Shown here: in pieces, positions 4,179-22,205 of the stretch | Position numbering within the stretch: position 1 is the stretch's first letter | Layout: every line of letters starts with the position of its first letter | Notes under the pieces: model-generated | Databases searched by the model: none | Told to the model about the DNA's origin: nothing | The model's input: only the letters and a program-made list of their open reading frames with translations | From: Clostridiales bacterium | GTDB lineage: Bacteria; Bacillota; Clostridia; DUOD01 | NCBI GenBank assembly: GCA_012838995.1 | Contig: DUOD01000018.1 | Span: 1-22,205, forward strand | Direction of reading: 5' to 3' | Length of the DNA stretch: 22,205 nt | Position numbers and translations under genes: made by a program

Positions 4179-4223
4179 GATAAAAAGACAACATTTGTTG
4201 TTGGACAAAAATAATTTAGCCGG

Positions 4224-4915: not shown

Positions 4916-5116
4916 TAATTAATCGTCAAGCTAACTTTTGCTGAGTAAATATAGGATGGTCTTAAGGAGATTACGGCTGGTTGTGATAAGTGTCAGTAAA
5001 TGTTAAAATATCTATGACTCTGGCATCTCAGCCAAAAAGTGCAAAACCTATAAAGTCCTTCCTCGAAGAGTAATCTTAAATAATCTATACAATTATAGAA
5101 TTAACGACGGTATCAT

Positions 5117-5179
5117 GCAGGATAGCTTCACCGTTGGCGAGACGGCACGACGCTATACTTAGAAAGAAGTATATCCTGC
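5117..5179 (+). promoter_or_regulatory. Structured element in the 5' leader of the ABC operon (12-bp bulged stem enclosing a small hairpin)
   Basis: GCAGGATA-g-CTTC (5117-5129) pairs with GAAG-ta-TATCCTGC (5166-5179). The inner hairpin is ccgt-tggcgag-acgg. I recognise no known riboswitch core. Confidence 0.3.
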
Positions 5180-5256
5180 TGATATATAAGGTAAAGCCCC
5201 AAATTAAAAAGCAAACAGGGGGTTTTACACAAAAAAAAATAAGGAGGAAGTAGTTT

Positions 5257-6360: not shown

Positions 6361-6377
6361 AAATATGAAGAAGACAT

Positions 6378-6417
6378 CGGGGTTGAATAAATCTTTATTC
6401 AACCCCGAAGTATTTTT
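6378..6417 (+). terminator. Intercistronic stem-loop plus T-tract between the SBP and ATPase genes (partial terminator/attenuator)
   Basis: Perfect 13-bp stem cggggttgaataa-atct-ttattcaaccccg (6378-6407), followed by aagtattttt. This arrangement is common in ABC operons to raise SBP stoichiometry. Confidence 0.65.
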
Positions 6418-6440
6418 AAACTGGGGGCGATGTTGTCGAT

Positions 6441-7943: not shown

Positions 7944-7960
7944 AAAGGGGAGACAGAAAA

Positions 7961-8986
7961 ATGAAATCTAATGCTATCAAGAAATTTTTCAGTAAAACAG
8001 AAGGCTATATTCTGTTGATAGTAATAGTGTACTGTATTATCGTAGCCGCTGTAAACCCCAACTTTATGACCCCAGGCAACTTCCTTGACCTAATCCGTTC
8101 GTCATCCTGGTATTGGATATTGGGATTTGGTGTGTTGCTGGTGTTACTTTCGGGGGGGATAGATGTTTCATATACGGCTATAGCTATTTGTAGTGGATAT
8201 GTATCTGCTTGTGTTATTCAGCGTACGGGAATAGAGAACCTGGCCTTTGCCTTCTTTATTGCAATTTTAATAGGCCTTTGGTTCGGCGCTATTAACGGAT
8301 TTTTAATACACTACTTTAGGCTGCCTACCCTTATTGCAACTTTAGGTACAAAGACAATTTTTATCGGTATTATGGCGGCGCTTGTAGGTGTAGAAGCTAT
8401 AAATACAGACCACTTACCCGCTGTATTTAAGGATTTCGGTTTGGCAAAACTATTCACTGTACCAACTGAAACGGGTGCGGAATACGGCCTTTCGGTATTC
8501 TTTATTCCACTGGTGATCTTAGGTATATTAACGTGGTTTATACTGTATCGCACTCAAATCGGTAGGAGCGTCGTTGCCCTTGGCAATTCGGAAGTATCGG
8601 CCGAGCGTGCGGGCTACAACCTGTTTAAGACTCGTATGTTTATATATATGTACGTAGGAGCCTTAGCCGCCGTGGCAGGTGTAATTGCCATTTCAGACGT
8701 TGCTTGGATTGCACCTCTCTCAAGTACAATGATACGAGGAACCGAGCTGACCATTATTGCAGCATTAATTATAGGCGGTGTAAAGCTGACAGGTGGAGAA
8801 GGTACGGTATTTGCTTCGATTATTGGATTGTTACTTGTAAGACTGTTTGAAACAACACTCATATTCCTCGGATTAACTTCATCATGGCAGAACTTCTTTA
8901 CCGGATTGGTATTCGTAGCCAGCTTGTCGGTGACATCGCTACAGAGGGCAAGAAAGAGACGTCGTATGCTCTTATTTGAAGAATAA
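7961..8986 (+). CDS. Sugar ABC transporter permease (RbsC/RhaP-like)
   Basis: 341 aa, AGGGGAG RBS and a multi-TM hydrophobic profile. The GGIDVS motif is typical of CUT2 permeases. Confidence 0.85.
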   Translation: MKSNAIKKFFSKTEGYILLIVIVYCIIVAAVNPNFMTPGNFLDLIRSSSWYWILGFGVLLVLLSGGIDVSYTAIAICSGYVSACVIQRTGIENLAFAFFIAILIGLWFGAINGFLIHYFRLPTLIATLGTKTIFIGIMAALVGVEAINTDHLPAVFKDFGLAKLFTVPTETGAEYGLSVFFIPLVILGILTWFILYRTQIGRSVVALGNSEVSAERAGYNLFKTRMFIYMYVGALAAVAGVIAISDVAWIAPLSSTMIRGTELTIIAALIIGGVKLTGGEGTVFASIIGLLLVRLFETTLIFLGLTSSWQNFFTGLVFVASLSVTSLQRARKRRRMLLFEE

Positions 8987-9002
8987 TGGGGGTAGACTAG
9001 TT

Positions 9003-10049
9003 ATGAAGAAAGGAATTAATAGTTTTGGAGATAGATTATTACAATCAGAAGATGTTAACGTACTAATATTGACAATTACTTTCGTTGCTGTTTTAGTGGT
9101 TTTGTCCATAGTTTTAGGTGGAACGTTTCTATCTGCCGCAAACTTCCAATCAATGGGCTTTCAGATACCTGAGTTTGGTCTCTTATCCCTTGCAATGTCC
9201 TTGTGCATGCTTGCCGGCGGGATAGATCTTTCTATAGTAGGAAACGCCAATTTATCAAGCGTATTAGCCGCTTATACACTACTGGCCCTGTCGGAAAACG
9301 GCGGTAACCCGATTATTGCAATAATTGTTGCAATCGTTGTCGGGTTGGTGGTTGGTGTAGGATGCGGCCTGCTGAACGGCTTACTGATTGCTAAGGTATC
9401 AATCCTTCCCATACTGGCTACGCTGTCGACTATGATTTTATACGACGGTATTGCCATGGCTCTAACGGACGGAAAAACCGTTTTGGGCTTCCCCTTGGAG
9501 TTTTCCAAGATGGCCATAGCCAAGGCGGGCGGTATACCCGGTGTTTTCATAGTATTTGTGGTAGTAGCGATAATAATCTCTTTAGTACTGACCCGTACGT
9601 TCTTTGGTAAGAATATTTACCTGTACGGTGCCAACAAAACAGTATCACTGTTTTCAGGAATAAGGGTAAATTCCCTCATACTGAAAACCTATGCGATATC
9701 CGGGTTGTTTGCCGGTATTGCCGGGTTGATGTTAATGGCCCGTGTTAACTCAGCCAAGGTTGGATATGGTGATACCTACCTACTCCAAACCATGTTGGTT
9801 AGTATCCTCGGCGGGGTAAGTCCTACCGGTGGTAAGGGTAAAGTTTTAGGCGTATTCTTGGGAATTCTTGTTCTGCAAATGCTGCAGAGCGGCTTTACGT
9901 TGCTGGGTGTCGAGCCGTACTTTAGGAACTTCATCTGGGGCGTTGTCCTAATCGGTGTAATGATTGCAAACTTCTACATCGAAAGAAGCAAGAAGAAGAT
10001 CAAAAGGCCAAAAGCTACAGCCAAGGAAGCCCAACAACCAGTAGCATAA
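9003..10049 (+). CDS. Second sugar ABC transporter permease (RbsC/RhaQ-like)
   Basis: I prefer the ATG at 9003 to the overlapping TTG at 8976. It is multi-TM, has the GGIDLS motif and ends in a basic C-terminal tail. Confidence 0.85.
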   Translation: MKKGINSFGDRLLQSEDVNVLILTITFVAVLVVLSIVLGGTFLSAANFQSMGFQIPEFGLLSLAMSLCMLAGGIDLSIVGNANLSSVLAAYTLLALSENGGNPIIAIIVAIVVGLVVGVGCGLLNGLLIAKVSILPILATLSTMILYDGIAMALTDGKTVLGFPLEFSKMAIAKAGGIPGVFIVFVVVAIIISLVLTRTFFGKNIYLYGANKTVSLFSGIRVNSLILKTYAISGLFAGIAGLMLMARVNSAKVGYGDTYLLQTMLVSILGGVSPTGGKGKVLGVFLGILVLQMLQSGFTLLGVEPYFRNFIWGVVLIGVMIANFYIERSKKKIKRPKATAKEAQQPVA

Positions 10050-10421: not shown

Positions 10422-11381
10422 ATGGAAAATATTGATAGGGTTAATATGCTGGTTAACATATCGAGGTTATATTATGAACATGATTATAGCCAGCAGCAAA
10501 TAGCGGAAAAACTGGGTTTATCACGGCCTTATGTATCAAAATTGATAAAAGAAGCCAGAAATGCAGGTATTGTTAATATAGTCATCAATGATCCTAATGA
10601 AGCTGAAACCGAAATAGAGGCCAAAATAAGAAAGAAATTCGGTCTTGAAAAAGTCATAGCAGTGCCTCTTAATAAGCCTAGCAGACAAAATATTTTGGAC
10701 AAGTTAGGGGTCGCTGCATCTAAATTTTTAAATTCTATAGTAAAAGACGGAGATATTATAGGCGTTACCTGGGGTGCTACCTTATATGCTTGTTCCCGCA
10801 ATTTAATCCCCAGAGAGGATATAAAGGACATAACAGTTGTCCAGATATGCGGGGGCGTAAGCAAGTTGGACAAAAATATATATGCTACTGAAATACCTAA
10901 GAAGTTTTCTGAAGTTTATCATGGGGTTCCCTATATTTTACCCCTACCGGCCATCCTCGACGATATAAAGGTAAAAAATGCAGTACTCCATGACAAAAAC
11001 ATCAATGACGTATTGAACATAGCAAGGCAGGCCAACATCAACATCTTTACCATGGGCACCTTCGGTTATGAGAGTGCCCTGACCAAGGCAGGCTATATTA
11101 GCAAGGAAGAGGTGGACCGACTGCATCTTAAGGGGGCAGTGGGGGACATTTGCGCAAGAATCATAGATATCAATGGAAACATATGCGACGAAAAGCTTAA
11201 CGAAAGGACCGTTGCCATAGACCTGGATGAACTAAAACTCAAAGATTGGAGAATAGCAGTAGCTACAGGTAGCAACAAGGTAAAATGCATCATCGGTGCT
11301 CTACGGGGAGGGTACGTAAACGTACTCATTACCGATGAGGAGACAGCTCTAGAAATATTAAGTATTATAGATAAGGAGTAA
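10422..11381 (+). CDS. SorC/DeoR(Bsu)-family transcriptional regulator (N-terminal HTH plus sugar-phosphate-binding domain)
   Basis: 319 aa. The HTH is YSQQQIAEKLGLSRPYVSKLIKEAR. GVTWGATL, VQICGG and the C-terminal ITDE are typical of the SorC sugar-binding domain. Its stop codon is 2 nt before the pduL start. Confidence 0.85.
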   Translation: MENIDRVNMLVNISRLYYEHDYSQQQIAEKLGLSRPYVSKLIKEARNAGIVNIVINDPNEAETEIEAKIRKKFGLEKVIAVPLNKPSRQNILDKLGVAASKFLNSIVKDGDIIGVTWGATLYACSRNLIPREDIKDITVVQICGGVSKLDKNIYATEIPKKFSEVYHGVPYILPLPAILDDIKVKNAVLHDKNINDVLNIARQANINIFTMGTFGYESALTKAGYISKEEVDRLHLKGAVGDICARIIDINGNICDEKLNERTVAIDLDELKLKDWRIAVATGSNKVKCIIGALRGGYVNVLITDEETALEILSIIDKE

Positions 11382-11383
11382 CA

Positions 11384-12022
11384 ATGATTAAGGATGCAAT
11401 AAAGAGAATCATAACAAATGAAATACTAAAGGCAACCATAAAAAAATATGGATTATACTTCTTACCGGCTGCTGTTTCCAATAGGCATATTCATCTCTCC
11501 AAGGAAGATAAAGAGAAACTTTTCGGAAGAGGGTATCAATTAAGGCCAATAAAGGAGCTTTCCCAACCCGGGCAATATGCCTGTGAGGAAAGGGTCACCA
11601 TAATAGGCAAAAAGGGTACCATCGAAAATGTAAGAGTATTGGGCCCCGAGAGAAAGGAAACCCAGCTTGAGGTATCCGTAAGTGACTGTTACACATTAGG
11701 GATAAAGCCGGTAATAAGGATGTCGGGGGATTTGGATAACACCCCGGGCATAACCATAGAAGGCCCTAAGGGTCGGGTAGAACTTCAAAAAGGTGTAGTA
11801 GTTGCAGCCCGCCATCTTCACATTTCCGAAGAGGAAGCAAAACTTTACGGTCTTAAAGACGGCGATGTGATAAGGGTGAAGAAATCGGGAATAAGGGAGA
11901 CGATTTTTGGAAACGTGCTGGTTAGATCAGGTTCCGGTCACAGGTTGGAATTGCATTTTGACATTGAAGAAGCCAATGCAGCGGGTATTAAAAACGGAGA
12001 CCTGCTATTAATAGAAAAATAA
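11384..12022 (+). CDS. pduL: Phosphotransacylase PduL (BMC-associated PTAC) with an N-terminal amphipathic helix
   Basis: 212 aa. It has the two diagnostic repeats SNRHIHLS and ARHLHIS. The N-terminus KDAIKRIITNEILKATIKK resembles an encapsulation peptide. Confidence 0.85.
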   Translation: MIKDAIKRIITNEILKATIKKYGLYFLPAAVSNRHIHLSKEDKEKLFGRGYQLRPIKELSQPGQYACEERVTIIGKKGTIENVRVLGPERKETQLEVSVSDCYTLGIKPVIRMSGDLDNTPGITIEGPKGRVELQKGVVVAARHLHISEEEAKLYGLKDGDVIRVKKSGIRETIFGNVLVRSGSGHRLELHFDIEEANAAGIKNGDLLLIEK

Positions 12023-12041
12023 GTTTAACAGGAGAGCGTAA

Positions 12042-12764
12042 ATGGACGTAGATCTGTTAATTGATGAAATTACAAAAAATGTTGTTTCACGACTTAAGGA
12101 CGAAATGTGCATAAGGGCTTTTGATGAAAGCAAAAGCGAAAACCGAATACTGGTTCTGCTGCCCGAGAATGTTTTAAGTATTGGGAAATTTCTCAACTAT
12201 GTTAAGGGTAAGTATGAAGATGGAGAACTTCTGGTAGCAGGTAATGTAGAAACCTTGGACGGAGTTTTAAAACCCGAACTGAGCAACAGCATAACATGCG
12301 TTAATATACAGGACAAGCATATACGGCATAAAGTGGGCAGCATTTTTGATAGTTATAAGGAGGTATGCTGTATAGCTCCCGGCATAAAACTTCTGGAGAA
12401 TATTGCCAAGGGAGACGATTCCCAATTTATCGAATACCTTTTGCTGCAAGGCATACTTCATAAAAAGCCCACGACAATTTATGTCGACTACATGCCCAAC
12501 GGCATTTCGTCCGATGGTTTGATGGGTAAGGTATCAACCTTGTTCAGAGAAATAGAAGCATCGGGCATTAAAGTGGAAAACATAGACAGGCAAACCGATG
12601 CAGTTATCAGTGCTGAAAAAGTATACCAAGACGGCCTGATAACCGAGCAGGATATCGACGAAATGTGGGCAAACGGGGTTACCGAGGTGGATTGCTCAAG
12701 ATGCATAGTAACGCCCCTTGCCAAGGACAGGGCCAAGGAACTGTCCATAACACTGAAGTATTAA
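12042..12764 (+). CDS. BMC-associated protein of unknown function with an encapsulation-peptide-like N-terminus
   Basis: 240 aa with an AGGAGA RBS. The N-terminus is MDVDLLIDEITKNVVSRLKDE. The C-terminal segment LITEQDIDEMWANGV...CIVTPLAKDRAKELSI is a short module I recall recurring in BMC loci. No catalytic motif recognised. Confidence 0.6.
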   Translation: MDVDLLIDEITKNVVSRLKDEMCIRAFDESKSENRILVLLPENVLSIGKFLNYVKGKYEDGELLVAGNVETLDGVLKPELSNSITCVNIQDKHIRHKVGSIFDSYKEVCCIAPGIKLLENIAKGDDSQFIEYLLLQGILHKKPTTIYVDYMPNGISSDGLMGKVSTLFREIEASGIKVENIDRQTDAVISAEKVYQDGLITEQDIDEMWANGVTEVDCSRCIVTPLAKDRAKELSITLKY

Positions 12765-12983
12765 CCAATGAAGCATGGATATAGGATGGTTAGCCTTAAA
12801 GAAGTAAGGAGTATGGCATAAAACCATGGACATGCCGAAAAATCGGCAATTAACAAGCGGTGTTAAACATTAAGTTAAAATTTATGTATTATCTATAAAG
12901 TATGGCATGAAAGCATTACACCAACAGACGAAAACAAATAAAAGCAATATCCTATTTAGCAAATAGACAGGGTGGTGTTAAAA

Positions 12984-14429
12984 ATGGCGATAACGAAGGA
13001 AAGAATTGAAGAAATAATTAGGGAGATGAACATGCACTTTGGCTCCAGTGTGGGGAGTACTACAACAGGTGTAAGAAGCAGTTCAATCTCGAGCCAGCCA
13101 AGAGGTCAGCTGGGGATCTTTTCAGATGTGGAGGATGCAATAGCGGCAGCAAAGGCCTCCCAAATAGAGCTAATTGCATTGGGTCTGGAAAAGAGACGCA
13201 AGATAGTAGAGGCCATGCGAAAAGCGGCTATTGATAATGCAGAGCATCTTGCGATAATGGCAGTTGAAGAAACAGGCTTTGGCAAAGTGGAACACAAAAT
13301 CGCAAAAAACTTGCTGGCCGCTGAAAAAACTCCGGGTATTGAGGATTTGGTTTCAACCACATATACCGGCGATGACGGGCTAACCCTTATTGAGGGAGCA
13401 CCCTTTGGTGTGATAGGTGCCATAACACCGTCGACAAATCCAGCAGCTACTATAATAAACAACGGTATAAGCATGGTAGCGGCTGGAAATTCTGTAGTTT
13501 TTAACCCCCATCCCGGTGCAAAAGAGGTTACCAATGAAGCCATTAGAATACTAAACAAAGCAATTATGAGTGCCGGTGGGCCTAGCAATGTGTTATGCAG
13601 TACCGAAAACCCTACAATAGAGTCCAGTAATACGATAATGAAACATAAAGATATTGCCATCCTTGTGGTAACCGGAGGAGAAGGCGTGGTAAGGGCGGCC
13701 ATGAACAGCGGCAAGAAGGTTATAGCTGCAGGACCGGGCAACCCGCCGGTGATAGTTGACGATACCGCAGATATAAAGAAGGCTGCAAAGGATATTGTGG
13801 ACGGAGCAAGCTTTGACAATAATATTCTCTGTATAGCCGAGAAGGAAGTTTTCGTATTTAGAAATGTTGCAGACCGGCTAATAGAAGAGATGATAAAAAA
13901 CGGGGCTTACCTTGCAAACAAGTCCACAGGAGAAATAGAAAAGATCAAGAACACCGTTTTTGAAACCAAAGGCGGCAAGACTGTGTTAAATAAAAAATTT
14001 GTCGGTAAAAGTGCCAATTATATCTTAAGCAAGAGTAATATAGATGTAAACGGCGAATACAAGCTGATCATTGCTGAAGTAGATGCAACCCATCCCTTTG
14101 TACTTACTGAAATGTTAATGCCCGTTTTACCCATTGTAAGGGTAGACAGCATAGACGAAGCAATACAGAAGGCGCTGGATGCTGAGCAAGCCAATAGACA
14201 TACAGCTCTCATGCACTCGCAAAATGTAACTAACCTTACAAAGGCTGCCAGGGCTCTTAACACTACAATCTTTGTAAAGAATGCACCGTCTTATGCCGGA
14301 TTGGGATATCAAGGTGAAGGATACACAACACTGACCATAGCAACGCCTACAGGGGAAGGGTTAACCTCTGCACGCACTTTTACCAGACAGAGAAGATGTA
14401 CATTGTATGGTTCCTTTAGGATTATTTAA
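12984..14429 (+). CDS. CoA-acylating aldehyde dehydrogenase (PduP/EutE-like) with N-terminal encapsulation peptide and Ser/Thr/Gly linker
   Basis: I prefer the ATG at 12984 (AGGGTGGTG RBS) to the GTG at 12972. The catalytic Cys lies in FDNNILCIAEKE and the C-terminus reads TFTRQRRC. The N-terminus KERIEEIIREMNMHF plus ..QPRGQLGIFSDVEDAIAAA parallels Salmonella PduP (..QPQGKGIFQSVSEAIDAA) as I recall it. Confidence 0.85.
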   Translation: MAITKERIEEIIREMNMHFGSSVGSTTTGVRSSSISSQPRGQLGIFSDVEDAIAAAKASQIELIALGLEKRRKIVEAMRKAAIDNAEHLAIMAVEETGFGKVEHKIAKNLLAAEKTPGIEDLVSTTYTGDDGLTLIEGAPFGVIGAITPSTNPAATIINNGISMVAAGNSVVFNPHPGAKEVTNEAIRILNKAIMSAGGPSNVLCSTENPTIESSNTIMKHKDIAILVVTGGEGVVRAAMNSGKKVIAAGPGNPPVIVDDTADIKKAAKDIVDGASFDNNILCIAEKEVFVFRNVADRLIEEMIKNGAYLANKSTGEIEKIKNTVFETKGGKTVLNKKFVGKSANYILSKSNIDVNGEYKLIIAEVDATHPFVLTEMLMPVLPIVRVDSIDEAIQKALDAEQANRHTALMHSQNVTNLTKAARALNTTIFVKNAPSYAGLGYQGEGYTTLTIATPTGEGLTSARTFTRQRRCTLYGSFRII

Positions 14430-14460
14430 TCAGCTGAGTATAAGCTAAGGAGTTGTAGTC

Positions 14461-15792
14461 ATGGCAAAAAGTTTTTATGATAGGATTTTTGATGCAGGAG
14501 TCATAGGAGCAGGCGGCGCCGGGTTTCCTACCCACATAAAAGTAAATGCTAAAGCCGATGTGGTATTGGCCAACGGTGCAGAATGCGAGCCCTTACTAAG
14601 GGTTGACCGTCGCATAATGGAGCACTACCCTGATAAGGTGGTAGAGGGTCTCCAAGTGGCGATGAGGGTAAGCGGTGCGGCCAAGGGATATATATGCTTG
14701 AAAGCTAAGTATAAATTGGCAGTGGAACGACTACAGAATGCCATAGGCAATAAAAAGAAAATTGAGTTGTTTTTGCTGGATAACTATTATCCAGCGGGTG
14801 ACGAACAGCAGATTGTACATGAGGTTACCGGCAAAGTAGTACCTCCCGGCGGGATACCGCTGGATGTAGGAGCGGTGGTGTGCAACGTAGGTACCTTGGT
14901 CAATATAGCAGATGCAGTTGAAGACATCCCGGTGACCCATAAATTAGTTACAGTTACCGGTGAGGTAAAAAACCCCATTACAATAAAGGTGCCGGTGGGA
15001 ACGCCCATGAAGCTACTGATAAAGGAAGCCGGCGGTCCCGATGAAGGCCAAGGATATGCATTAATAGAAGGCGGGCCGGCCATGGGCAAGGTCCAGGAGG
15101 ACTGGTCATCACCCGTTAAAAAGACTACCGGGGGACTGATAGTACTTCCGTCCAACCATTTGGTTATAAGGAAGAAAGAGGGACCCTCGGAATCGGATTA
15201 CAGACTGACCAAATCGGTATGCTGCCAATGTAGTTATTGCACTCAACTGTGTCCAAGGAACAACATAGGATTGGGTGTACAACCCCATAAGGTAATGAGG
15301 GGTATAGGATACGGCAGAGGTGATGCAATAGGCAATATAAATGACGTATTTTCATGCTGTGACTGCGGATTATGTACCTATTATGCCTGCTACATGGGCC
15401 TCAAACCGGGTACCATGGTTACCACCATTAAGAATGCCCTTCTCAAGAAGGGAATAAGACCGCAGAAAGAAAGAGTAAAAGAAGTTAATCCGGCATGGGA
15501 ATACAAAAAGGTGCCAACCGAAAGATTTATTCAGAGACTTGGGTTGAGCAAGTATGACGTCGATGCTCCTATGGTGGACAAAGAAATCGCTGTAGATAAG
15601 GTAAGGATCCCTCTCAAACAGCATATTGGTGTACCGGCTACACCGGTGGTTGAAGTGGGAGCGGATGTCCAGGTCGGTGATCTAATCGGTGCGGTTGAAA
15701 AAGACAAGGTAGGGGCTAATGTCCATGCCAGCATAGATGGCAAAGTCACCTTTGTTTCCAAAGAATTAATTGAAATTTCTGCAAGAGGGTAG
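14461..15792 (+). CDS. pduS: PduS-like / RnfC-family flavo-iron-sulfur oxidoreductase
   Basis: 443 aa with an AAGGAG RBS. The nucleotide-binding region is GAGGAGFPTHIK...ANGAECEPLL. Two Cys clusters are present, CCQCSYCTQLCP and CCDCGLCTYYAC. The C-terminal segment IPLKQHIGVPATPVV..GD.V.VGDLIG resembles an RnfC barrel-sandwich domain. Confidence 0.8.
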   Translation: MAKSFYDRIFDAGVIGAGGAGFPTHIKVNAKADVVLANGAECEPLLRVDRRIMEHYPDKVVEGLQVAMRVSGAAKGYICLKAKYKLAVERLQNAIGNKKKIELFLLDNYYPAGDEQQIVHEVTGKVVPPGGIPLDVGAVVCNVGTLVNIADAVEDIPVTHKLVTVTGEVKNPITIKVPVGTPMKLLIKEAGGPDEGQGYALIEGGPAMGKVQEDWSSPVKKTTGGLIVLPSNHLVIRKKEGPSESDYRLTKSVCCQCSYCTQLCPRNNIGLGVQPHKVMRGIGYGRGDAIGNINDVFSCCDCGLCTYYACYMGLKPGTMVTTIKNALLKKGIRPQKERVKEVNPAWEYKKVPTERFIQRLGLSKYDVDAPMVDKEIAVDKVRIPLKQHIGVPATPVVEVGADVQVGDLIGAVEKDKVGANVHASIDGKVTFVSKELIEISARG

Positions 15793-15804
15793 GGGGATGG
15801 ATTC

Positions 15805-16350
15805 ATGGATGCATTAGGAATGATTGAAATAAATAGTGTAGCAGCTGGTATAGAAGCCGGAGACGCAATGTTAAAGACTGCAGGGGTTACTTTGGTTAAC
15901 GCGCAGCCGGTATGCGCGGGCAAATATATTGTGACCGTTCAAGGTGCTGTTGCGGAGGTTACCAGTTCTGTCAACGCAGGAAAGGAGAGCGCCGGAGATT
16001 CTCTGGTAGACAGCTTCATTATACCCAACGTACACCCCCAAGTGTTTTCAGCATTAGCCTGTGCTTCGGATATAGATGTCGACAATGCCGTAGGAGTAAT
16101 AGAGACATTCTCATTGTCTGCCTGTGTTGTAGCTGCTGATGCTGCCGTTAAAGCAGCTGAGGTTGATCTGCTGGAAATAAGACTTGGGATGGGGCTCGGC
16201 GGCAAATCCTTCGTAATACTAAGTGGAGACGTAAGCGCAGTTAGACATTCCGTTGAATCAGCCGAAAGCAGTATCGGAATAGAGGGGTTGGTAGTACGTA
16301 CTGTTGTTATACCTTCACCCCACAAAGATATTGTTAAGGCTTTGATATAG
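15805..16350 (+). CDS. pduT: Tandem-domain BMC shell protein (BMC-T), PduT-like, with the candidate Fe-S-ligating Cys
   Basis: 181 aa with two BMC domains, [22 protein letters not shown] and [22 protein letters not shown]. Cys37 in PVCAGKY aligns with TICPGKF (Cys38) of Salmonella PduT as I recall it. Confidence 0.8.
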
Positions 16351-16387
16351 ATACCCAATATTAATGCGTGAGGTGATGAAGCAGGTT

Positions 16388-16669
16388 ATGATCAAAGAAG
16401 CATTAGGTATGGTTGAAACAAGAGGTTTAGTAGGAGCTATAGAGGCTGCCGACGCCATGGTTAAAGCGGCAAGTGTCAAACTAATAGGCAAAGAAAAGGT
16501 AGGCGGTGGACTGGTTACCGTAATGGTAAGAGGTGATGTTGGAGCGGTAAAGGCAGCCACCGAAGCCGGAGCAGCAGCTGCAAAAAGGGTTGGCGAGCTT
16601 GTATCCATGCACGTTATTCCAAGGCCTCATAGCGATGTGGATGGCATTTTACCAAAGGCATCTGTGTAA
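16388..16669 (+). CDS. BMC-H hexameric shell protein (PduA/EutM-like), pore motif KVGGGL
   Basis: [25 protein letters not shown]...[21 protein letters not shown]...VHVIPRPH. I chose the start at 16388 by analogy with the PduA N-terminus. In-frame ATGs at 16364 and 16376 cannot be excluded. Confidence 0.85.
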
Positions 16670-16802
16670 GCCGGCAAGGCGAATAGCTAAACATTTTTCC
16701 AGGTAGGGGCCATTCTAAAATTAAAGAATTTATAAAGTTTTGCAACAATGGTTTAAGCACAGGACATATCCATGTCTTAATTTTTGAAAATGTTGATAAT
16801 TA

Positions 16803-16823
16803 CAATGTATTAAATATACATTG
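16803..16823. promoter_or_regulatory. 8-bp inverted repeat CAATGTAT-taaat-ATACATTG in the spacer between the two BMC-H genes (operator candidate)
   Basis: Read directly. It overlaps a possible sigma-A-like promoter, TTGATA-N16-TATACA. Confidence 0.3.
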
Positions 16824-16889
16824 GATTAAATGCAACCCAAAATAAAAACAAAAATTATTACAACAAAAATTGAAAGGAGAAAGTGGTCA

Positions 16890-17186
16890 ATGATTGATAA
16901 GGAAGCATTAGGTATGGTTGAAACAAGAGGTTTAGTAGGAGCAATTGAGGCTGCTGACGCTATGGTAAAAGCAGCAAACGTAAGATTGATAGGAAAGGAA
17001 AAAATAGGCAGCGGTCTCGTAACCGTTATGGTAAGAGGCGACGTTGGAGCAGTTAAGGCATCCACCGAAGCCGGTGCTGCAGCTGCAAAAAGGGTTGGAG
17101 AACTTGTATCCGTACACGTCATCCCAAGACCTCATACAGATGTTGAGCAGATTCTGCCCAAGGCAACTTGCAGCGATAGCGAATAA
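16890..17186 (+). CDS. Second BMC-H hexameric shell protein (PduA-like), pore motif KIGSGL
   Basis: I prefer the ATG at 16890 (AAAGGAGA RBS at 16873-16880) to the track start at 16830. It is about 80% identical by eye to the upstream paralog and shares an identical 41-nt DNA block with it. Confidence 0.9.
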
Positions 17187-17369
17187 GTTTGTATATAGTC
17201 AGTATAGTTGGCAATACAGTGTTTACAATTAAAAATGCAACCTATCTGGGCTTTGAATCTTTAACAGTCCGGCAGTTGGATTGTAAATTTTTACCGCGCA
17301 CTGACGGTTTTAAAACAGCTGACAATATATGTGTGGGACAAAGTGGTTATATAGAGACATTTAGTTAGA

Positions 17370-17443
17370 GGACGCCAGCAGGATGGCGATAAACATTACC
17401 CGAGCAGCTATAGGTGCCGTGATTGTTGGTGTCCTTTTTATTT
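17370..17443 (+). terminator. Long imperfect hairpin followed by T5AT3 between the shell genes and deoC (terminator/attenuator candidate)
   Basis: ggacgccagcag (17370-17381) pairs with ttgttggtgtcc (17423-17434), giving 12 bp with 4 G-U pairs and a 41-nt loop. tttttattt follows. An alternative local hairpin, cgcca-gcagga-tggcg, competes for the 5' arm. Confidence 0.4.
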
Positions 17444-17496
17444 CAAACTCGATAAAGTAGATACAATCTATATACAAAAGGGTGATTGATTTGGAA

Positions 17497-18279
17497 ATGG
17501 ACAAACTTATAGAAAAACTAACCGAAGAGATATACAAAAAAGTATTGGGTGAAATTCAAAAAACCGGAAGTTTTGACAGTATTCCTGTTAGCACTCCCAG
17601 TGGCGGGGATCGTGGTCTAGCCAGCATGATAGATCATACCCTTTTAAAGCCCGACGCAACCGTGGAAGATGTTAAAAAAGTATGCGAGGAAGCAAAACAA
17701 TACGGATTCGCGTCCGTGTGCATAAACCCCGGATATGTACCCTTGGCAGTACAAACACTGAGGGGAAGTAATGTAAAAACTTGTACGGTAATAGGTTTTC
17801 CCTTGGGAGCTACAACCACAAAGACAAAGGTTGAAGAAACAAAAGAGGCATTAGAAAACGGTGCCAAGGAAATTGACATGGTAATAAATGTGGGTGCTTT
17901 AAAATCCGGCGATATAGATCTCGTAAAAAATGATATAGAAGAGGTAGTAATAGCAGCCAAAGGTAGAGGAATTGTTAAAGTTATCATAGAAACTTGCTTG
18001 TTAACCGATGACGAAAAGGTAAAGGCTTGTACAATAGCCAAGGCAGCTGGAGCGGATTTCGTAAAGACTTCTACAGGCTTTAGCACCGGCGGCGCAACGG
18101 TAGAAGACATTAAATTAATGAGGGAAGTAGTAGGGCCGGACATGGGAGTTAAAGCCTCTGGAGGTATCCGTGATTACGAGACTGCTATGGCGATGATAAA
18201 TGCAGGGGCCAATAGAATCGGAGCCAGCGCTTCAGTGGCTATAGTAAACAAACAAAAAACATCTAAAAAAGGTTACTAG
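17497..18279 (+). CDS. deoC: Deoxyribose-phosphate aldolase family class I aldolase (DeoC/DERA) with a ~40-aa N-terminal extension
   Basis: I prefer the ATG at 17497 (AAGGGTGA RBS) to the GTG at 17482. The core starts at [12 protein letters not shown]. The Schiff-base region DFVKTSTGF and VKVIIET are present. The extension reads [40 protein letters not shown]. Confidence 0.85.
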
Positions 18280-18302: not shown

Positions 18303-19364
18303 GTGGCTCAAAAAATGAGAGCAGTTAGGTTGTTTGCCCCTGGCGACGTAAGGTGTGTAGAAGTTGATATTCCAAAAATCGAACAGCCTGATGATGTAAT
18401 AGTAAAGGTAAAGTCCTGCGGAGTATGCGGGTCTGATATAGCACGAGTTATGGAAAAAGGTGCCTATCGATATCCTATTACCATAGGTCATGAATTTGCA
18501 GGCGAAGTAGCGGAAGTAGGCAGTGACGAATATGGCATAGAAGTGGGAGACAGGGTAGCTGTAATGCCCCTTATACCCTGTGGCAAGTGTAAGTACTGCG
18601 CCATCGGCGAGTTTGTGTTGTGTGACGAGTATCAGTACTACGGTTCTCGAATTGACGGTGCCATGGCCGAGTACATCAGGGTAAAGGCCCACAACATTTT
18701 GAAAATGCCCTTAGGCGTGGACTATGAGGCCGGATCCATGGTTGATCCCACATCTGTAGGGCTCCATGCAGTGAGAAAGACCAAAATAGAGCCCGGCCAA
18801 AGCGGCGTGGTTTTTGGTTTGGGACCCATCGGTCTCATCACCATGCAGTGGTTAAAGGCTTTAGGCTGTGATAAGGTATTTGCCGTTGATATTTTCGATG
18901 ATAAATTGGATTTAGCTGACCGACTGGGTGCAGATTATTGCATTAACGGCAAGAAACAGGATGCAGTAGAAGCAATAATGGAATTAACCTCAGGCGAAGG
19001 TGTGGATATATCTATCGAACTGGCAGGAAGTATAATTACCCAGGATCAAGCTATACGAGCAACTAAAAAGATGGGTACAGTAGTTTACTGTGGTATTTCT
19101 TATGACGACCTTGTTTTATCCAACGCTACAGTAAACAGGATTTTAAGGGGAGAGCTGACAATTAAGGGTTCTTGGAATTCTTCCATTGCACCGCTACCCA
19201 TCAATGAATGGGAAAGCTCACTTAAATTTATGAAAAACGGTAAGGTGAAAGTAAACCCGCTGATATCACATAGATTTAGGCTGGAAGAATGCCAAGAGTG
19301 TTTCAACATGATGTACCATAAAACCGAAGTGTTTAACAAGGTACTGTTTAAACCCGAGGACTAA
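18303..19364 (+). CDS. Zn-dependent MDR-family dehydrogenase (sorbitol / threonine / galactitol-1-P dehydrogenase-like)
   Basis: GTG start 6 nt after GGAGGG. Catalytic motifs are CGVCGSD and GHEFAG, the structural Zn site is CGKCKYCAIGEFVLC, and the Rossmann motif is VFGLGPIGL. Confidence 0.8.
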   Translation: MAQKMRAVRLFAPGDVRCVEVDIPKIEQPDDVIVKVKSCGVCGSDIARVMEKGAYRYPITIGHEFAGEVAEVGSDEYGIEVGDRVAVMPLIPCGKCKYCAIGEFVLCDEYQYYGSRIDGAMAEYIRVKAHNILKMPLGVDYEAGSMVDPTSVGLHAVRKTKIEPGQSGVVFGLGPIGLITMQWLKALGCDKVFAVDIFDDKLDLADRLGADYCINGKKQDAVEAIMELTSGEGVDISIELAGSIITQDQAIRATKKMGTVVYCGISYDDLVLSNATVNRILRGELTIKGSWNSSIAPLPINEWESSLKFMKNGKVKVNPLISHRFRLEECQECFNMMYHKTEVFNKVLFKPED

Positions 19365-19418: not shown

Positions 19419-20456
19419 ATGTTAGCTTATGTATATGACGAGCAAGGAAAATTGTCGCTAAAGGATATGCCCCGTCCTACTGCTAAAAATAATACAGCCG
19501 TAATAAAGGTTGGGGCCTGCTCCATATGCGGTACGGATTTTAGAACATATATGCACGGTAGCAGTAAAATTACACCGCCTAGGATCATTGGCCATGAAGC
19601 CGTAGGAACGATAGTTGAAGTAGGCAGGGATGTTATCGGATTCAGTAAAGGCGAAAGGGTTGCCGTTGCCCCCGCTATTGGATGCGGGGAATGTTACCCT
19701 TGCCAAAGCGGTTATCCCAATATGTGCGATGACCTTCAAACGATAGGCTTTCAATTTGACGGCGGCTTTGCGGAATATATGGAAATCCCCGAAATAGCCT
19801 TTAAGATGGGTAATGTAAATAAACTAGGCAGCTTAATCAGCGATGAAGAAGCCAGCCTTGCAGAACCCACGGCTTGTGTGGTAAATGCCCAGGAGTTTCT
19901 GAATATTAAGAAGGGCGATTACGTGGCCGTATTCGGATCAGGATTTATTGGCTGCATGCATGCCGAACTTGCATTTAGGAGCGGGGCTTCCAAGGTGATT
20001 ATAATCGAGGTTTCCGAAAAGAGAATAAAGCAGGCCGAGGAACTTGTTCCCGGAATTATTACTATAAATTCGACGGAAAAGGATCTTATGACCGAAATAA
20101 TGGACATAACCGAGGGAAGAGGAGTAAATGTTGCAATAACGGCATGTTCAGTCGGCAAGGTCCAGGAAGATGCACTGAATATCGCTTCTAAAAGGGGAAG
20201 GATAAGCCTGTTTGGAGGAATCCCCGGCAGTGGCAAGGGATATATCGACAGTAACGTTATACACTACAAAGAACTGTCGGTGTACGGCGTTCATGCATCA
20301 ACACCTCTCCAGAACAAGAAAGTATTGGACTGGATATCCACGGGCAGTTTGAAGGTGGACAAATATGCAAAAAATATTTATCCCCTAAGGGATATTGAAA
20401 AGGCCTTTGAAGCAATTAAAGGCGGGGACGTTTTAAAGGCAATCATCAAGCCATAA
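19419..20456 (+). CDS. Second Zn-dependent MDR-family dehydrogenase (polyol or sugar-phosphate dehydrogenase-like)
   Basis: Motifs CSICGTD, GHEAVG, CGECYPCQSGYPNMC and VFGSGFIGC. Confidence 0.8.
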   Translation: MLAYVYDEQGKLSLKDMPRPTAKNNTAVIKVGACSICGTDFRTYMHGSSKITPPRIIGHEAVGTIVEVGRDVIGFSKGERVAVAPAIGCGECYPCQSGYPNMCDDLQTIGFQFDGGFAEYMEIPEIAFKMGNVNKLGSLISDEEASLAEPTACVVNAQEFLNIKKGDYVAVFGSGFIGCMHAELAFRSGASKVIIIEVSEKRIKQAEELVPGIITINSTEKDLMTEIMDITEGRGVNVAITACSVGKVQEDALNIASKRGRISLFGGIPGSGKGYIDSNVIHYKELSVYGVHASTPLQNKKVLDWISTGSLKVDKYAKNIYPLRDIEKAFEAIKGGDVLKAIIKP

Positions 20457-20510: not shown

Positions 20511-21992
20511 ATGGAAAAATTTCTAATATTTGACCTTGGGGCCGGTAGCGGCAGGGCAATAGTTGGGGATTTTGATGATAACAAAATTTCCTTCGAAGAA
20601 ATTCATCGTTTTGACAACCGCCCGGTTTATGCTGCGGGAGAATTATTCTGGGATATACTACGCCTTTACTCGGAAATTAAGAGAGGAATAGAAATTTGCA
20701 GCAAGAAATACGATAATGTACGTTCACTGGCAATCGATACCTGGGGATGCGATTTCGGGCTAATAGACAAAAACGGCAGGCTAATTTGCAATCCTGTAAA
20801 TTATAGGGACAGGAAGAGACATGAACGTGCCGAAAAGCTTCATGAAATAATACCAGAAAAGGAATTATTCCAACTATCCGGCGGACCGCTGGATAGGATA
20901 ATGGGTATTTACCAGTTGTTTTCACTGAAATATGAAAATGCCGTTGAATATCAAAACGCCCATAGACTCCTCATGATACCCGATATTTTCAACTATTTCT
21001 TGACTGGAGAGGCAGTTAACGAATTTACCAATGCTACAATGACCCTCATGTGTAACCAGAATGAAAGAAAGTGGGAAGATAAGATAATATCCAAATTGGG
21101 CTTTACAAGGGAAATTTTCTCAGACCTTAATGAGCCCGGAGTTGTTATTGGGAAATTAACTAAATCCGTATGCGATGAGCTGAGCACCCAAGCTATTCCG
21201 GTTGTCTTACCTCCCACCCACGATACCGCATCTGCTGTAGCAGGCATTCCCGTGGCCGACTACAATAAACCTTGGGCCTTCATAATTCTGGGCACCTGGT
21301 GTATAGGCGGAATAGAAACTTCTGCTCCGGTAATTAATGACAAGGTACTGGAATCAGGATTTGGAAACGAGGGCGGAGTAGAAGGAAAGAACATGCTGCT
21401 TAAGAATACAACGGGTATGTGGCTCAAGCAGCAGTGTAGAGCATCCTGGATGAAGTCTGCCCAGAGGGAGATTTCCTGGGAGGAAATTAACCAGGCAGCA
21501 AACAGCGCCCAGTCTACAGATTCCTATATAGATGTGGACGAAGAGCGTTTCGGCAAGGTTCAGCCTGATATGCCGGGCGTAATTGCCGAGTATTGCAGAG
21601 AAACGGGCCAGAAAGTTCCCTCAACCATGGGTGAAATTACCCGATGTCTCAATGAAAGCCTTGCACTGAAGTTTAGACATAATCTAACCATGCTTCAGGA
21701 ATTTAGCGGCCAGAAACTTGAAGTCCTACATCTGGTTGGTGGAGGAATTAGGGATGAGCTATTATGCCAGCACATAGCCGATGCTCTGGGCATAACAGCC
21801 ATTGCCGGACCTACAGAAACTTCATCTGCAGGCAACCTAATATTCCAACTCAAGGCCGGTGGATACATTAAGGGCGTACAAGAGGGAAGAAAGATATGCA
21901 GGAATTCCTTTGAAATTAAGGAATACGAGCCCCATGACACCGATGTGTGGGACGAGAAGTACGAGAAGTATTTGAAGCTGTTGGAAAGGTAA
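20511..21992 (+). CDS. FGGY-family carbohydrate kinase, rhamnulokinase-like
   Basis: 493 aa. The N-terminus FDLGAGSGRAIVG...EIHRFDNRPV...LFWDILRLYSEIKRGI resembles RhaB-type kinases. The C-terminal motif is GGGIRDELLCQHIADALG. Confidence 0.75.
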   Translation: MEKFLIFDLGAGSGRAIVGDFDDNKISFEEIHRFDNRPVYAAGELFWDILRLYSEIKRGIEICSKKYDNVRSLAIDTWGCDFGLIDKNGRLICNPVNYRDRKRHERAEKLHEIIPEKELFQLSGGPLDRIMGIYQLFSLKYENAVEYQNAHRLLMIPDIFNYFLTGEAVNEFTNATMTLMCNQNERKWEDKIISKLGFTREIFSDLNEPGVVIGKLTKSVCDELSTQAIPVVLPPTHDTASAVAGIPVADYNKPWAFIILGTWCIGGIETSAPVINDKVLESGFGNEGGVEGKNMLLKNTTGMWLKQQCRASWMKSAQREISWEEINQAANSAQSTDSYIDVDEERFGKVQPDMPGVIAEYCRETGQKVPSTMGEITRCLNESLALKFRHNLTMLQEFSGQKLEVLHLVGGGIRDELLCQHIADALGITAIAGPTETSSAGNLIFQLKAGGYIKGVQEGRKICRNSFEIKEYEPHDTDVWDEKYEKYLKLLER

Positions 21993-22088
21993 TAAACGTT
22001 GTATAAAAGTCCCGACGAAGCTTCCATAGTATAAATGTTTGCATGGGTTTTAAAATAATTAAAATATTATGCGGAGGTGCTTAGTATT

Positions 22089-22205
22089 ATGAAGGACAAA
22101 ATGAAAGCTGCAGTGTTTGAGGGCGAAGGAGTATTGAAGATTAAAGAAGTCGATGTCCCCAAGATCGAGAAAGCCGACGAACTGATCGTAGAGGTAGAAA
22201 TGTGC
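22089..22205 (+). CDS. Third Zn-dependent MDR dehydrogenase, 5' fragment truncated by the window end
   Basis: ATG 9 nt after GGAGGTG. The 39 codons read MKDKMKAAVFEGEGVLKIKEVDVPKIEKADELIVEVEMC, a typical MDR N-terminus ending at the catalytic-Zn Cys. Confidence 0.7.
   Translation, partial: MKDKMKAAVFEGEGVLKIKEVDVPKIEKADELIVEVEMC

Follow-up and report, generated by a model that had tools for sequence, protein, structure and literature searches.

Bacterial microcompartments (BMCs) of the SPU class were named in 2014 (Axen; PMC4207490) and were expanded in 2021 to more than 280 loci from 26 phyla, in seven subtypes (Sutter; PMC8217296). Dwyer, Sutter and Kerfeld (2024; PMC11585597) defined the SPU core as DERA (DeoC) and an aldehyde dehydrogenase (AldDH), with DERA as the signature enzyme; an SPU6 DERA was purified and shown to cleave 2-deoxy-D-ribose-5-phosphate (dR5P), and the associated RPI was inactive (PMC11585597). 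A preprint from 2025 describes SPU-type compartments in Asgard archaea, confined to self-assembly of the shell. No native SPU organelle or growth phenotype was found in the SPU literature searched. Here we describe a BMC operon in a stretch of 22,205 nt (the window: positions 1 to 22,205 of the forward strand of contig DUOD01000018.1, GenBank assembly GCA_012838995.1). The window is essentially the whole 22,207-bp contig, recorded at NCBI as 'MAG TPA: Clostridiales bacterium', and brings 22 kb of that genome into view. The same sequence is present at 99.9% identity or above in independent ENA and JGI assemblies, and a contig with a common left flank is labelled as biogas-fermenter metagenome. 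The operon is very probably a SPU4-type sugar-phosphate metabolosome operon of an uncultured Clostridiales bacterium of anaerobic digesters, with DERA as its signature enzyme.

Loci of subtype SPU4 have been described as belonging to Firmicutes and as encoding AldDH, a phosphotransacylase (PTAC) of family PF06130, the protein eut_hyp with an N-terminal encapsulation peptide (EP), two similar BMC-H and no BMC-T(dp), with an optional PduS/PduT pair (Sutter 2021, Supplementary Data 2; PMC8217296). Both the class and its interpretation are thus already published, and the window adds one more SPU4 locus that is largely ordinary.

Gene content and assignment to SPU4

Every open reading frame (ORF) of at least 119 residues in the window was scanned with Pfam and NCBIfam profiles. 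All window genes lie on the + strand. The genes that an initial annotation, made from the sequence alone, had named between 10422 and 18279 were all recovered in place on the + strand, including the metabolosome core that it had recognized (AldDH, PduL, a PduS-like protein, a PduT-like BMC-T and two BMC-H):

10422–11381, + strand: SorC-family (Bacillus DeoR-like) regulator, first gene of the operon (Sugar-bind 228 bits plus a helix-turn-helix domain)
11384–12022, + strand: PduL phosphotransacylase with an amphipathic N-terminal extension of about 27 residues, a putative EP (PF06130 (PTAC), 248 bits)
12042–12764, + strand: eut_hyp (TIGR02536-like), 240 residues (TIGR02536 28.7 bits, weak)
12765–12983, no strand: empty AT-rich gap at the first BMC-P position (tblastn with five BMC-P proteins, no match)
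12984–14429, + strand: acylating AldDH (PRK15398 667 bits, cutoff 403)
14461–15792, + strand: PduS-like FMN/Fe-S oxidoreductase (Complex1_51K 165 bits, SLBB, Fer4_17, RnfC_N)
15805–16350, + strand: PduT-type tandem-domain BMC-T (two BMC domains, 158 bits)
16364–16669, + strand: BMC-H paralogue 1 (PF00936 102 bits; EutM model 134 bits)
16670–16889, no strand: empty AT-rich gap at the second BMC-P position, between the BMC-H genes (tblastn, no match)
16890–17186, + strand: BMC-H paralogue 2 (PF00936 103 bits; ORF opens at 16830)
17189–17460, + strand: BMC-P (EutN/CcmL) pseudogene at the third position (tblastn with the BMC-P of related locus L010, E 9e-7)
17497–18279, + strand: DERA (DeoC) (TIGR00126 297 bits; ORF opens at GTG 17482)

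The operon reads, in order, SorC/DeoR-type regulator, PduL, eut_hyp, AldDH, PduS, BMC-T, two BMC-H, DERA, two zinc dehydrogenases of the medium-chain dehydrogenase/reductase (MDR) superfamily (ZnDH1 and ZnDH2) and an FGGY kinase; 116 nt of a third MDR gene follow the kinase before the contig ends. It almost certainly continues beyond 18279 to at least 21992, because the genes there lie only 23, 54 and 54 nt apart and a promoter/terminator scan detected, downstream of 10422, no terminator of the strong kind (more than 3 G-C pairs in the stem). Terminator-like sites in the window were no commoner than in shuffled sequence, and the scan is unusable for delimiting the operon. An Rfam search of the window gave no matches and no riboswitch.

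Judged by its gene content, the window is a SPU4-type locus almost point for point, in keeping with the likeness to the SPU class pointed out in the initial annotation (PMC8217296). DERA is encoded with shell genes, an acylating AldDH is present in the locus and the core enzymes carry EP-like extensions. The features particular to SPU4 are also found: the host is one of the Firmicutes, the PTAC belongs to PF06130, eut_hyp has an EP, the two BMC-H are similar, BMC-T(dp) is absent and PduS and PduT occur as a pair, which is present in 14 of 33 SPU4 loci. The proposal that a C-C lyase is the signature enzyme agrees with the published definition of SPU by DERA and AldDH (PMC11585597). When the locus was typed by profile, as had been suggested, PF00936, PF06130 and DeoC gave matches and PF03319 gave no intact gene, and comparison with the published catalogues led to SPU4. 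The accompanying statement that SPU has no experimentally established substrate or organelle was overtaken by the 2024 demonstration of dR5P cleavage for the first part, and holds in the literature searched for the native organelle.

Two enzymes of other SPU loci were looked for. No window ORF matched RpiB (PF02502), which is absent from SPU5 and from 11 of the 29 curated SPU4 loci and present in the other 18 (PMC11585597); the lack of this isomerase is therefore within the known variation. Triose-phosphate isomerase (TIM; PF00121), which belongs to the SPU4 description and often bears an EP, also had no match in the window; among the related loci recovered in our searches (given below by number), it is present in L012, L013 and L018 and absent from L011.

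The absence from the window of a B12 diol dehydratase, an ethanolamine ammonia-lyase and a glycyl-radical enzyme, as originally claimed, was confirmed among ORFs of at least 119 residues, and none was found in the syntenic loci. In L011, L018 and L010, which extend 8–10 kb further downstream, there is likewise no other signature enzyme, only MDR dehydrogenases, FGGY kinases and a sugar ATP-binding cassette (ABC) transporter.

The only SPU system with purified enzymes is the SPU6 locus of Chloroflexi bacterium GWB2_54_36 (PMC11585597). It shares with the window an N-terminally extended DERA, the Asp/Lys/Lys triad and an AldDH partner, but differs in having a GntR regulator, a C-terminal EP on AldDH, BMC-T(dp), an inactive DERA-binding RPI and a BMC-P triplet, and in having no PduL, PduS or PduT, all three of which are found in the window. 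EUT2 loci of Firmicutes resemble the window in their acylating AldDH with a PduL-type PTAC, in the eut_hyp family and in an EutM-like BMC-H, but have EutBC with EutA as signature, no DERA, and regulation by EutVW and a B12 riboswitch. The Bacillus subtilis dra-nupC-pdp operon for cytosolic deoxynucleoside catabolism also places a SorC-family, DeoR-like repressor beside a short Firmicutes-type DERA (about 70% identical to solved DERAs). It has no shell, AldDH or PTAC, and in place of its nucleoside transporter and phosphorylase the window contains a sugar ABC importer, MDR dehydrogenases and an FGGY kinase. PVM, PVM-like and GRM5 loci are similar in that a sugar-phosphate aldolase acts at or feeds the aldehyde step, alongside rhamnose/fucose-type uptake, isomerase and kinase genes; however, their aldolase is a PF00596 class II enzyme that converts fuculose- or rhamnulose-1-phosphate to lactaldehyde, whereas the window has a class I DERA that would yield acetaldehyde.

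Three further analogies were considered and rejected. An lsr (autoinducer-2)-like system, with SorC, FGGY kinase, ribose-type ABC transporter and a DeoC/LsrF-family aldolase, does not fit because the aldolase is a DERA equivalog and not LsrF; the LsrK, LsrR and LsrB models also score far below the DeoR, RhaB and RhaS models. A rhamnose/fucose pathway feeding lactaldehyde was dismissed, as no PF00596 class II aldolase is found in the window. The erythritol pathway of Brucella, with its FGGY kinase, polyol-phosphate dehydrogenase, xylose-isomerase-like TIM barrel and TIM and RpiB paralogues, cannot yield a 2-deoxy-aldose, and as an analogy for SPU loci in general it is suggestive.

DERA as the signature enzyme

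The window DERA scores 297 bits against the TIGR00126 equivalog model, for which the cutoff is 117; with the solved DERA 8qps the score is 294 bits. The motifs containing the Asp, the Schiff-base Lys and the second Lys (DMVIN, VKTSTGF and GVKASGG) are kept in an alignment with 8qps and 5dbu. By these matches the protein is a genuine DERA equivalog, rather than merely a member of the DeoC family, and its predicted reaction is the cleavage of dR5P into glyceraldehyde-3-phosphate plus acetaldehyde. The phosphate-site motifs show no module-specific change relative to housekeeping DERAs, and the RIGASAS variant of the window protein is the common form in short housekeeping DERAs.

The likely start is ATG 17497, preceded by AAAGGGTG and located 311 nt past the second BMC-H gene, which gives a protein of 260 residues, the length entered at NCBI. 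Its first ~44 residues are not part of the DERA fold and consist of an N-terminal helix and a linker, in agreement with the targeting-like extension noted in the initial annotation. The N-terminal motif, (I/L)EKLIEKITEEVY(K/R)K, is kept in seven related loci (L009–L014 among them), while the Gly/Ser-rich linker that follows it is not conserved. An AlphaFold model built from a 52-sequence alignment (pLDDT 89) contains a helix at residues 2–22, disorder at 21–37 and the TIM barrel at 39–250. The conserved motif, the variable Gly/Ser-rich linker and the modelled layout of helix, disorder and barrel support an encapsulation-peptide architecture, through which DERA would be targeted to the shell.

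Many BMC-type DERAs carry a C-terminal tail of about 30 residues with the pattern CX2CX2CX3CP, a single ferredoxin-like [4Fe-4S] motif (Pfam PF12838). Examples are found in L011 (10001–10897), L013 (10001–10879) and L014 (10001–10831) and in proteins P0003, P0008, P0020, P0040 and P0047. Among the 120 best homologues, the tail is present in 39 of 68 N-terminally extended DERAs and in none of the 52 without an extension. It is absent from the DERAs of the window, L009, L010, L012 and L018, and the main text of Dwyer 2024 says nothing of it. A four-Cys tail confined to EP-bearing DERAs of sister loci hints at a redox feature of the signature enzyme.

Loss of the pentamer genes

The BMC-T protein is closest to PDB entries 3nwg (192 bits) and PduT 3n79 (148 bits), and its pore cysteine is kept (motif PVC(A/P)GKY, aligned as PVCAGKY). 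The two BMC-H genes are 84% identical in DNA, as found by a blastn self-match. Shell proteins were scored with general models (EutM, 134 and 137 bits; PduT, 145 bits). The shell gene set is incomplete, because the window has no intact BMC-P.

The loci L011 (JGI) and L018, the latter recovered from an ENA sample that also yielded one copy of the window, have the same gene order as the window and three BMC-P genes each: one separates eut_hyp from AldDH, one separates the two BMC-H, and one lies after the second BMC-H, ahead of DERA. The intact order is SorC-(TIM)-PduL-eut_hyp-P-AldDH-PduS-T-H-P-H-P-DERA-ZnDH1-ZnDH2-ABC. The first two of these positions are the empty gaps of the window, and the third is occupied by the pseudogene, whose N-terminal part is in the frame of 17189, with a stop at ~17366, and whose C-terminal part is in the frame of 17188. 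The pseudogene can be aligned over its full length to intact orthologues at 28–36% identity (43–67% among themselves). Its sequence is identical in three independent assemblies (the window, L001 from ENA and L002 from JGI), which makes an assembly error unlikely. On this comparison, all three BMC-P genes have been lost, two by deletion and one by pseudogenisation.

A closer relative, L104, with 80.5% DNA identity over PduL, eut_hyp and AldDH, is also without the first BMC-P. The eut_hyp gene has a dN/dS of 0.09 at a dS of ~0.87 (pairwise against the 84%-identical L104), so that the first loss, common to both, is old. The proteins other than BMC-P diverge from those of L011 and L018 about as much as L011 diverges from L018. 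Since L104 already lacks the first BMC-P and eut_hyp is still constrained, selection has continued to maintain the locus following the loss of at least some of its pentamer genes. Either the shell would then be open or tubular, or it would be capped by pentamers from genes at another place in the genome.

Among the shell-containing loci that carry DERA and ZnDH1 (see below), 12 of 25 have no BMC-P within 10 kb, often with a single BMC-H. Several mini-loci (L014, 7292–11130; L025, 8405–12562; L029, 8414–11422) consist of an extended DERA, a single BMC-H and SorC, with variously a kinase, TIM or ZnDH1; no BMC-P is found within 10 kb of any of the three, and L014 and L025 also have no AldDH within 10 kb. 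This suggests that the mini-loci act as satellite modules, loading DERA into a compartment whose genes lie in another place. Among the SPU subtypes, SPU4 is the one for which co-occurrence with EUT2, GRM1 and BUF3 loci has been reported (PMC8217296; PMC11585597).

Other core enzymes and the regulator

PduL matches PF06130 from residue 30 onward and scores 257 bits against NF011652 (cutoff 209); its N-terminus is MIKDAIKRIITNEILK. The AldDH ORF opens at GTG 12972, with ATG 12984 as the likely start, and its N-terminus reads MAITKERIEEIIREMNMHF followed by GSSVGSTTTGVRSSSISSQPRG. The enzyme is 62–67% identical to those of L011 and L018 in full-length pairwise alignment and 70–71% identical to those of L011 and L013 over the best tblastn segment. 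When AldDH was used to scan metagenomes, only five loci and no new close relative were returned. DERA, AldDH, PduL and eut_hyp all begin with an amphipathic helix that leads into a linker; the hydrophobic moments are 0.67 for DERA, 0.59 for AldDH, 0.56 for eut_hyp and 0.48 for PduL. These extensions resemble encapsulation peptides and would target all four proteins to the lumen.

The eut_hyp ORF, which had been passed over in the initial annotation, has no Pfam match. A full HMMER scan of 1.84 billion representative proteins found 135 relatives. With eut_hyp alone as query, an exact-peptide-seeded scan of genome contigs found no relatives, because the protein evolves too fast for such seeding, and a word-indexed protein search found two proteins. 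An AlphaFold model (AF2, pLDDT 89) opens with a long helix, continues with a Rossmann domain of flavoprotein-like type and ends in a small domain. The nearest structures to its core by Foldseek are the flavoproteins UbiX, EpiD and DmrB (E 1e-4, TM 0.45–0.6). This fold agrees with the remark of Sutter 2021 (PMC8217296) that eut_hyp, a protein typical of SPU4, is a relative of the flavoprotein family PF02441.

The regulator gene ends 2 nt before the start of pduL, and orthologues of 50–64% identity occupy the same position in L011, L012 and L018. Against NCBIfam models it scores 354 bits for Bacillus DeoR (cutoff 420) and 158 bits for LsrR. By family, the protein is predicted to respond to sugar phosphates.

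A dehydrogenase-kinase module linked to DERA

Three genes follow DERA in the operon:

18303–19364, + strand: MDR zinc dehydrogenase ZnDH1, of the GatD/threonine dehydrogenase/polyol dehydrogenase branch (ADH_N plus ADH_zinc_N)
19419–20456, + strand: second MDR zinc dehydrogenase, ZnDH2 (Pfam/NCBIfam scan)
20511–21992, + strand: FGGY kinase of the rhamnulokinase/fuculokinase type (TIGR02627 394 bits, cutoff 528)

With three MDR dehydrogenase genes just downstream, the initial claim that DERA is the only enzyme able to generate an aldehyde was too strong. ZnDH1 is nearest to galactitol-1-phosphate 5-dehydrogenase, with 275 bits against the NCBIfam GatD model (about half of its cutoff of 550) and 227 bits against PDB 4a2c, and belongs to the Cys-His-Glu polyol/threonine dehydrogenase branch rather than to the ethanol-type alcohol dehydrogenases. 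ZnDH1 and ZnDH2 follow DERA in L009, L010, L011 and L018 at 64–74% identity and are as conserved as DERA. The FGGY kinase scores 273 bits against FucK (PDB 4c23) and 247 bits against RhaB, and orthologues with 44–54% identity adjoin DERA-ZnDH1 in L029, L032, L046 and L060.

An alignment-based scan with ZnDH1, covering one genome per GTDB species and followed by tblastn with the window proteins, identified orthologues of at least 60% identity in 37 genomes. DERA is encoded within 10 kb in 33 of these, usually immediately upstream, and in none of 37 loci with more distant MDR homologues (at most 42% identity). The ZnDH1-DERA carriers span Bacillota, Spirochaetota, Atribacterota, Actinomycetota and Halanaerobiales. 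Carriers of ZnDH1 include Dorea sp. D27 (L027), Robinsoniella peoriensis, Blautia species, a complete Lachnospiraceae genome, an Atribacteria SPU2 locus with RpiB, and metagenome-assembled genomes of Spirochaetota, Actinomycetota and Halanaerobiales. Dorea sp. D27 is listed as an SPU4 carrier (PMC8156839), and the recovery of its locus by the ZnDH1 query supports the link to SPU4. No mention of two MDR dehydrogenases and an FGGY kinase after DERA was found in the SPU literature searched, although they occur in catalogued carriers such as Dorea sp. D27. Searches of the literature for a pathway that joins DERA to an FGGY or glycerol kinase also found nothing relevant.

Shell genes are absent from 8 of the 33 DERA-ZnDH1 loci (L042, L039, L041, L044, L048, L050, L052 and L022), most of which have the order DERA-ZnDH1-ZnDH2-GlpK-like-AraA-like-SorC. 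In Ruminiclostridium hungatei DSM 14427 (L042, 4765–17545), a CUT1 ABC importer is encoded with a DERA without extension, ZnDH1, ZnDH2 and a GlpK-like kinase, followed by a short-chain dehydrogenase/reductase, an AraA-like isomerase, a SorC regulator, a glyoxalase-family protein and a GH51 arabinofuranosidase. The other seven, characterized by tblastn, contain the core of DERA, ZnDH1, ZnDH2 and GlpK-like kinase, mostly with an AraA-like isomerase and SorC; L022 has no AraA-like tblastn match, and its SorC gene lies upstream. These shell-less operons look like a DERA-centred catabolic pathway that has so far not been described.

The kinase type varies between loci, being GlpK-like in L009, L010 and L014 (681–708 bits on the TIGR01311 glycerol kinase equivalog, cutoff 590), ribulokinase-like in L012 and several Lachnospiraceae, and RhaB/FucK-like in the window. 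The window kinase was considered as the conserved kinase of the module and rejected, since it shares 21–23% identity with the GlpK-like kinases of sister loci and is not orthologous to them. In L018, the 1.8 kb between ZnDH2 and the ABC transporter (12951–14786) has no called gene and contains FGGY-like fragments (e.g. GGAKSAV) interrupted by stops; it is probably a kinase pseudogene in an otherwise intact sister locus. The canonical SPU4 locus L013 has neither ZnDH nor kinase.

No nucleoside-salvage gene was found in the window, L009–L014, L018 or L042, which were Pfam-annotated or ORF-scanned; the remaining loci were probed by tblastn with a fixed panel of window and locus proteins, salvage enzymes not among them. 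The absence of these genes from the annotated loci weakens DNA detritus as the sole source of substrate, and suggests that the substrate comes from an imported sugar or polyol and not only from DNA.

Upstream flank and contig ends

The region upstream of the operon contains two gene groups:

176–4178, + strand: two xylose-isomerase-like TIM-barrel proteins, a RhaM-like mutarotase and an M24/creatinase-like protein (Pfam/NCBIfam scans)
5257–10049, + strand: ribose-type (CUT2) sugar ABC importer, with a weakly RhaS-like binding protein, a double ATPase and two permeases

The first group probably consists of accessory sugar-conversion genes, and a transporter of the second kind also flanks the DERA-ZnDH loci L010, L011, L012 and L018. 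Orthologues of the first xylose-isomerase-like gene (XI1, 176–1168) with 79–82% identity are found in three Blautia loci (L029, 11754–12734; L033, 11772–12752; L060, 12828–13808), where they adjoin DERA-ZnDH1-BMC-H. In L029 and L060, an orthologue of the window's RhaB-like kinase (53–54% identity) also adjoins DERA-ZnDH1-BMC-H. The recurrence of XI1 and the RhaB-like kinase in Blautia indicates that the flanks of the window are part of the same functional island. XI1 is more similar in Blautia (79–82%) than the neighbouring DERA, ZnDH1 and AldDH (52–65%), which suggests a recent transfer or an unusually strong constraint.

The two gene groups are separated by an AT-rich gap of 1.08 kb (4179–5256), in which the 4001–5000 block has 32% G+C compared to 41–45% in the flanking kilobases. 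It contains no + strand ORF of at least 70 residues and no Rfam match, and only the − strand ORFs 4173–4448 and 5128–6003 overlap it.

The window begins, at positions 1–36, with the end of an MDR dehydrogenase gene (C-terminus EGIEVLIDLRK*) and closes with 142 nt (22064–22205) from a copy of that gene, 97.9% identical, which comprise its ribosome-binding region and its first 38 codons. In L007 (1218–2271), the upstream MDR copy is preceded by an amidohydrolase-like gene, not by an FGGY kinase. From the sequence ends, the 22-kb island seems to be flanked by two near-identical MDR copies, and these are the probable cause of the contig breaks on either side; the island may be arranged in a circle or in tandem. 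Directly after the stop codon of the upstream MDR gene, a near-perfect palindrome of 47 nt (38–84; TGTGATGTGGTTATAACC…GGTTATAACCACATCACA) is predicted to be a likely intrinsic terminator or protein-binding site.

Proposed mechanism and alternatives

A mechanism can be proposed from established metabolosome and DERA biochemistry. Build-up of a sugar phosphate would release the operon from the SorC/DeoR-type repressor, and a 2-deoxy-aldose phosphate, most likely dR5P, would enter the shell through the BMC-H pores. EP-tagged DERA would convert it to acetaldehyde and to glyceraldehyde-3-phosphate, which would leave for glycolysis. The acetaldehyde would be oxidized to acetyl-CoA with formation of NADH by EP-tagged AldDH, and EP-tagged PduL would convert acetyl-CoA to acetyl-phosphate, for ATP formation outside the shell, with recycling of CoA. 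For the re-oxidation of NADH, one route would lead through PduS and the Fe-S pore of PduT, perhaps with the flavoprotein-like eut_hyp taking part; the other would use the two MDR dehydrogenases. An imported sugar or polyol would probably be the source of the deoxy-sugar phosphate, either alongside DNA breakdown or in its place, because the operon is embedded in a set of importer, dehydrogenase, kinase and isomerase genes that travels with DERA in many genomes.

Several points weigh against this reading. An intact BMC-P (PF03319) gene is found nowhere in the window, while the BMC-P triplet is described as universal among SPU loci, with at least three genes in each. The score of the regulator is below the DeoR equivalog cutoff. 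The window contains no nucleoside phosphorylase, phosphopentomutase or PfkB deoxyribokinase and does not encode a source of dR5P. In addition, it is the gene identities, extensions and synteny that are observed directly; the encapsulation, the substrate in vivo, the flux, the route of NAD+ recycling and the closure of the shell are all deduced.

Regarding the feedstock, the same organelle could obtain the DERA substrate from an imported sugar or polyol via ZnDH1 and ZnDH2, the FGGY kinase and isomerases or epimerases, rather than from DNA-derived deoxynucleosides; this would refine the proposed mechanism, not replace it, and is a serious possibility that stays short of being probable. The linkage of ZnDH1 orthologues to DERA across phyla, not seen for the distant MDR homologues, argues for it, as do the eight shell-less loci (exemplified by L042 with its ABC importer and GH51 arabinofuranosidase), the true glycerol kinase scores in L009, L010 and L014, the recurrence of XI1 and the RhaB-like kinase beside DERA-ZnDH1-BMC-H in Blautia, and the lack of nucleoside-salvage genes in the annotated loci. 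However, the kinase is not conserved, with GlpK-, AraB- and RhaB-like types interchanging and a decayed remnant in L018, the canonical SPU4 locus L013 does without ZnDH and kinase, and the literature searches found no pathway that links these enzymes. In one variant, unphosphorylated 2-deoxyribose would be cleaved to acetaldehyde and glyceraldehyde, which ZnDH1 would reduce to glycerol for phosphorylation by GlpK; in another, ZnDH1 would be the alcohol dehydrogenase missing from the metabolosome core. ZnDH1 could accordingly reduce acetaldehyde and recycle NAD+, could act as a glyceraldehyde or triose-phosphate reductase tied to the glycerol kinases, or could be an upstream polyol(-phosphate) dehydrogenase. 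A phosphorylated substrate is favoured by the DERA core and phosphate-site motifs, which are the same as those of housekeeping DERAs, and by an EP-tagged TIM in sister loci, which implies triose phosphates in the lumen; both points also weigh against the alternative feedstock. A different role for the dehydrogenases, in which an MDR enzyme supplies the aldehyde to an ethanol-utilisation (ETU)-type or polyol-oxidising compartment and DERA is accessory or cytosolic, is very unlikely. Three MDR dehydrogenase genes do lie in or next to the operon, and alcohol dehydrogenases can make aldehydes; yet the MDR proteins have neither an N- nor a C-terminal extension while DERA has a conserved EP, ZnDH1 accompanies DERA even where there is no shell and is not of the ethanol type, and the published definition of SPU rests on DERA.

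It is also conceivable, although we consider it somewhat unlikely, that the shell is no longer closed, being open, tubular, sheet-like or missing, with DERA, AldDH and PduL scaffolded or cytosolic, or that pentamers are supplied in trans by a second BMC locus. Pdu compartments without PduN form elongated tubes. The 22 kb contain no intact BMC-P, and the one remnant is frameshifted, strongly diverged and identical in three assemblies, at a site where sister loci, with three BMC-P at exactly these positions, are intact. The age of the first loss, shared with L104 at a dS of ~0.87, and the 12 of 25 shell-containing DERA-ZnDH1 loci without a BMC-P nearby are consistent with this reading, as is the reported co-occurrence of SPU4 with EUT2, GRM1 and BUF3. 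On the other hand, the EPs, both BMC-H, BMC-T and PduS remain intact, their rate of evolution matches that in loci with pentamer genes, and strong purifying selection acts on eut_hyp. Any pentamers supplied in trans would be encoded in the remainder of the genome, outside the 22 kb in view. A SPU4-type metabolosome with DERA as signature enzyme remains the preferred explanation of the locus.

Implications

The original finding amounts to a rediscovery of the SPU class and matters little by itself. The interest of this particular copy lies in the complete loss of its pentamer genes under continued selection and in the module of DERA, dehydrogenases and kinase. A natural locus minus its three pentamer genes, with the rest under purifying selection, is a case in which to ask whether compartments can do without vertex proteins or share them with one another. 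For the source of the SPU substrate, the route of NAD+ recycling and the role of 'RPI', the DERA-linked MDR dehydrogenase, FGGY kinases, importers and isomerases are concrete enzymes to test. The linkage also offers strains in which to do so: the shell-less Ruminiclostridium hungatei DSM 14427 and the shell-bearing Robinsoniella peoriensis and Dorea sp. D27.

We tentatively suggest, as a possibility that we hold to be doubtful at present, that in several phyla, Firmicutes included, DERA, a neighbouring GatD-like MDR dehydrogenase, an FGGY kinase and SorC form an old, undescribed catabolic unit for an imported sugar or polyol, which occurs either naked or wrapped in an SPU shell, and which in the lineage of the window works, under selection, without any pentamer gene in the locus. 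If this is true, the most widespread uncharacterised metabolosome would not be primarily an organelle of DNA salvage.

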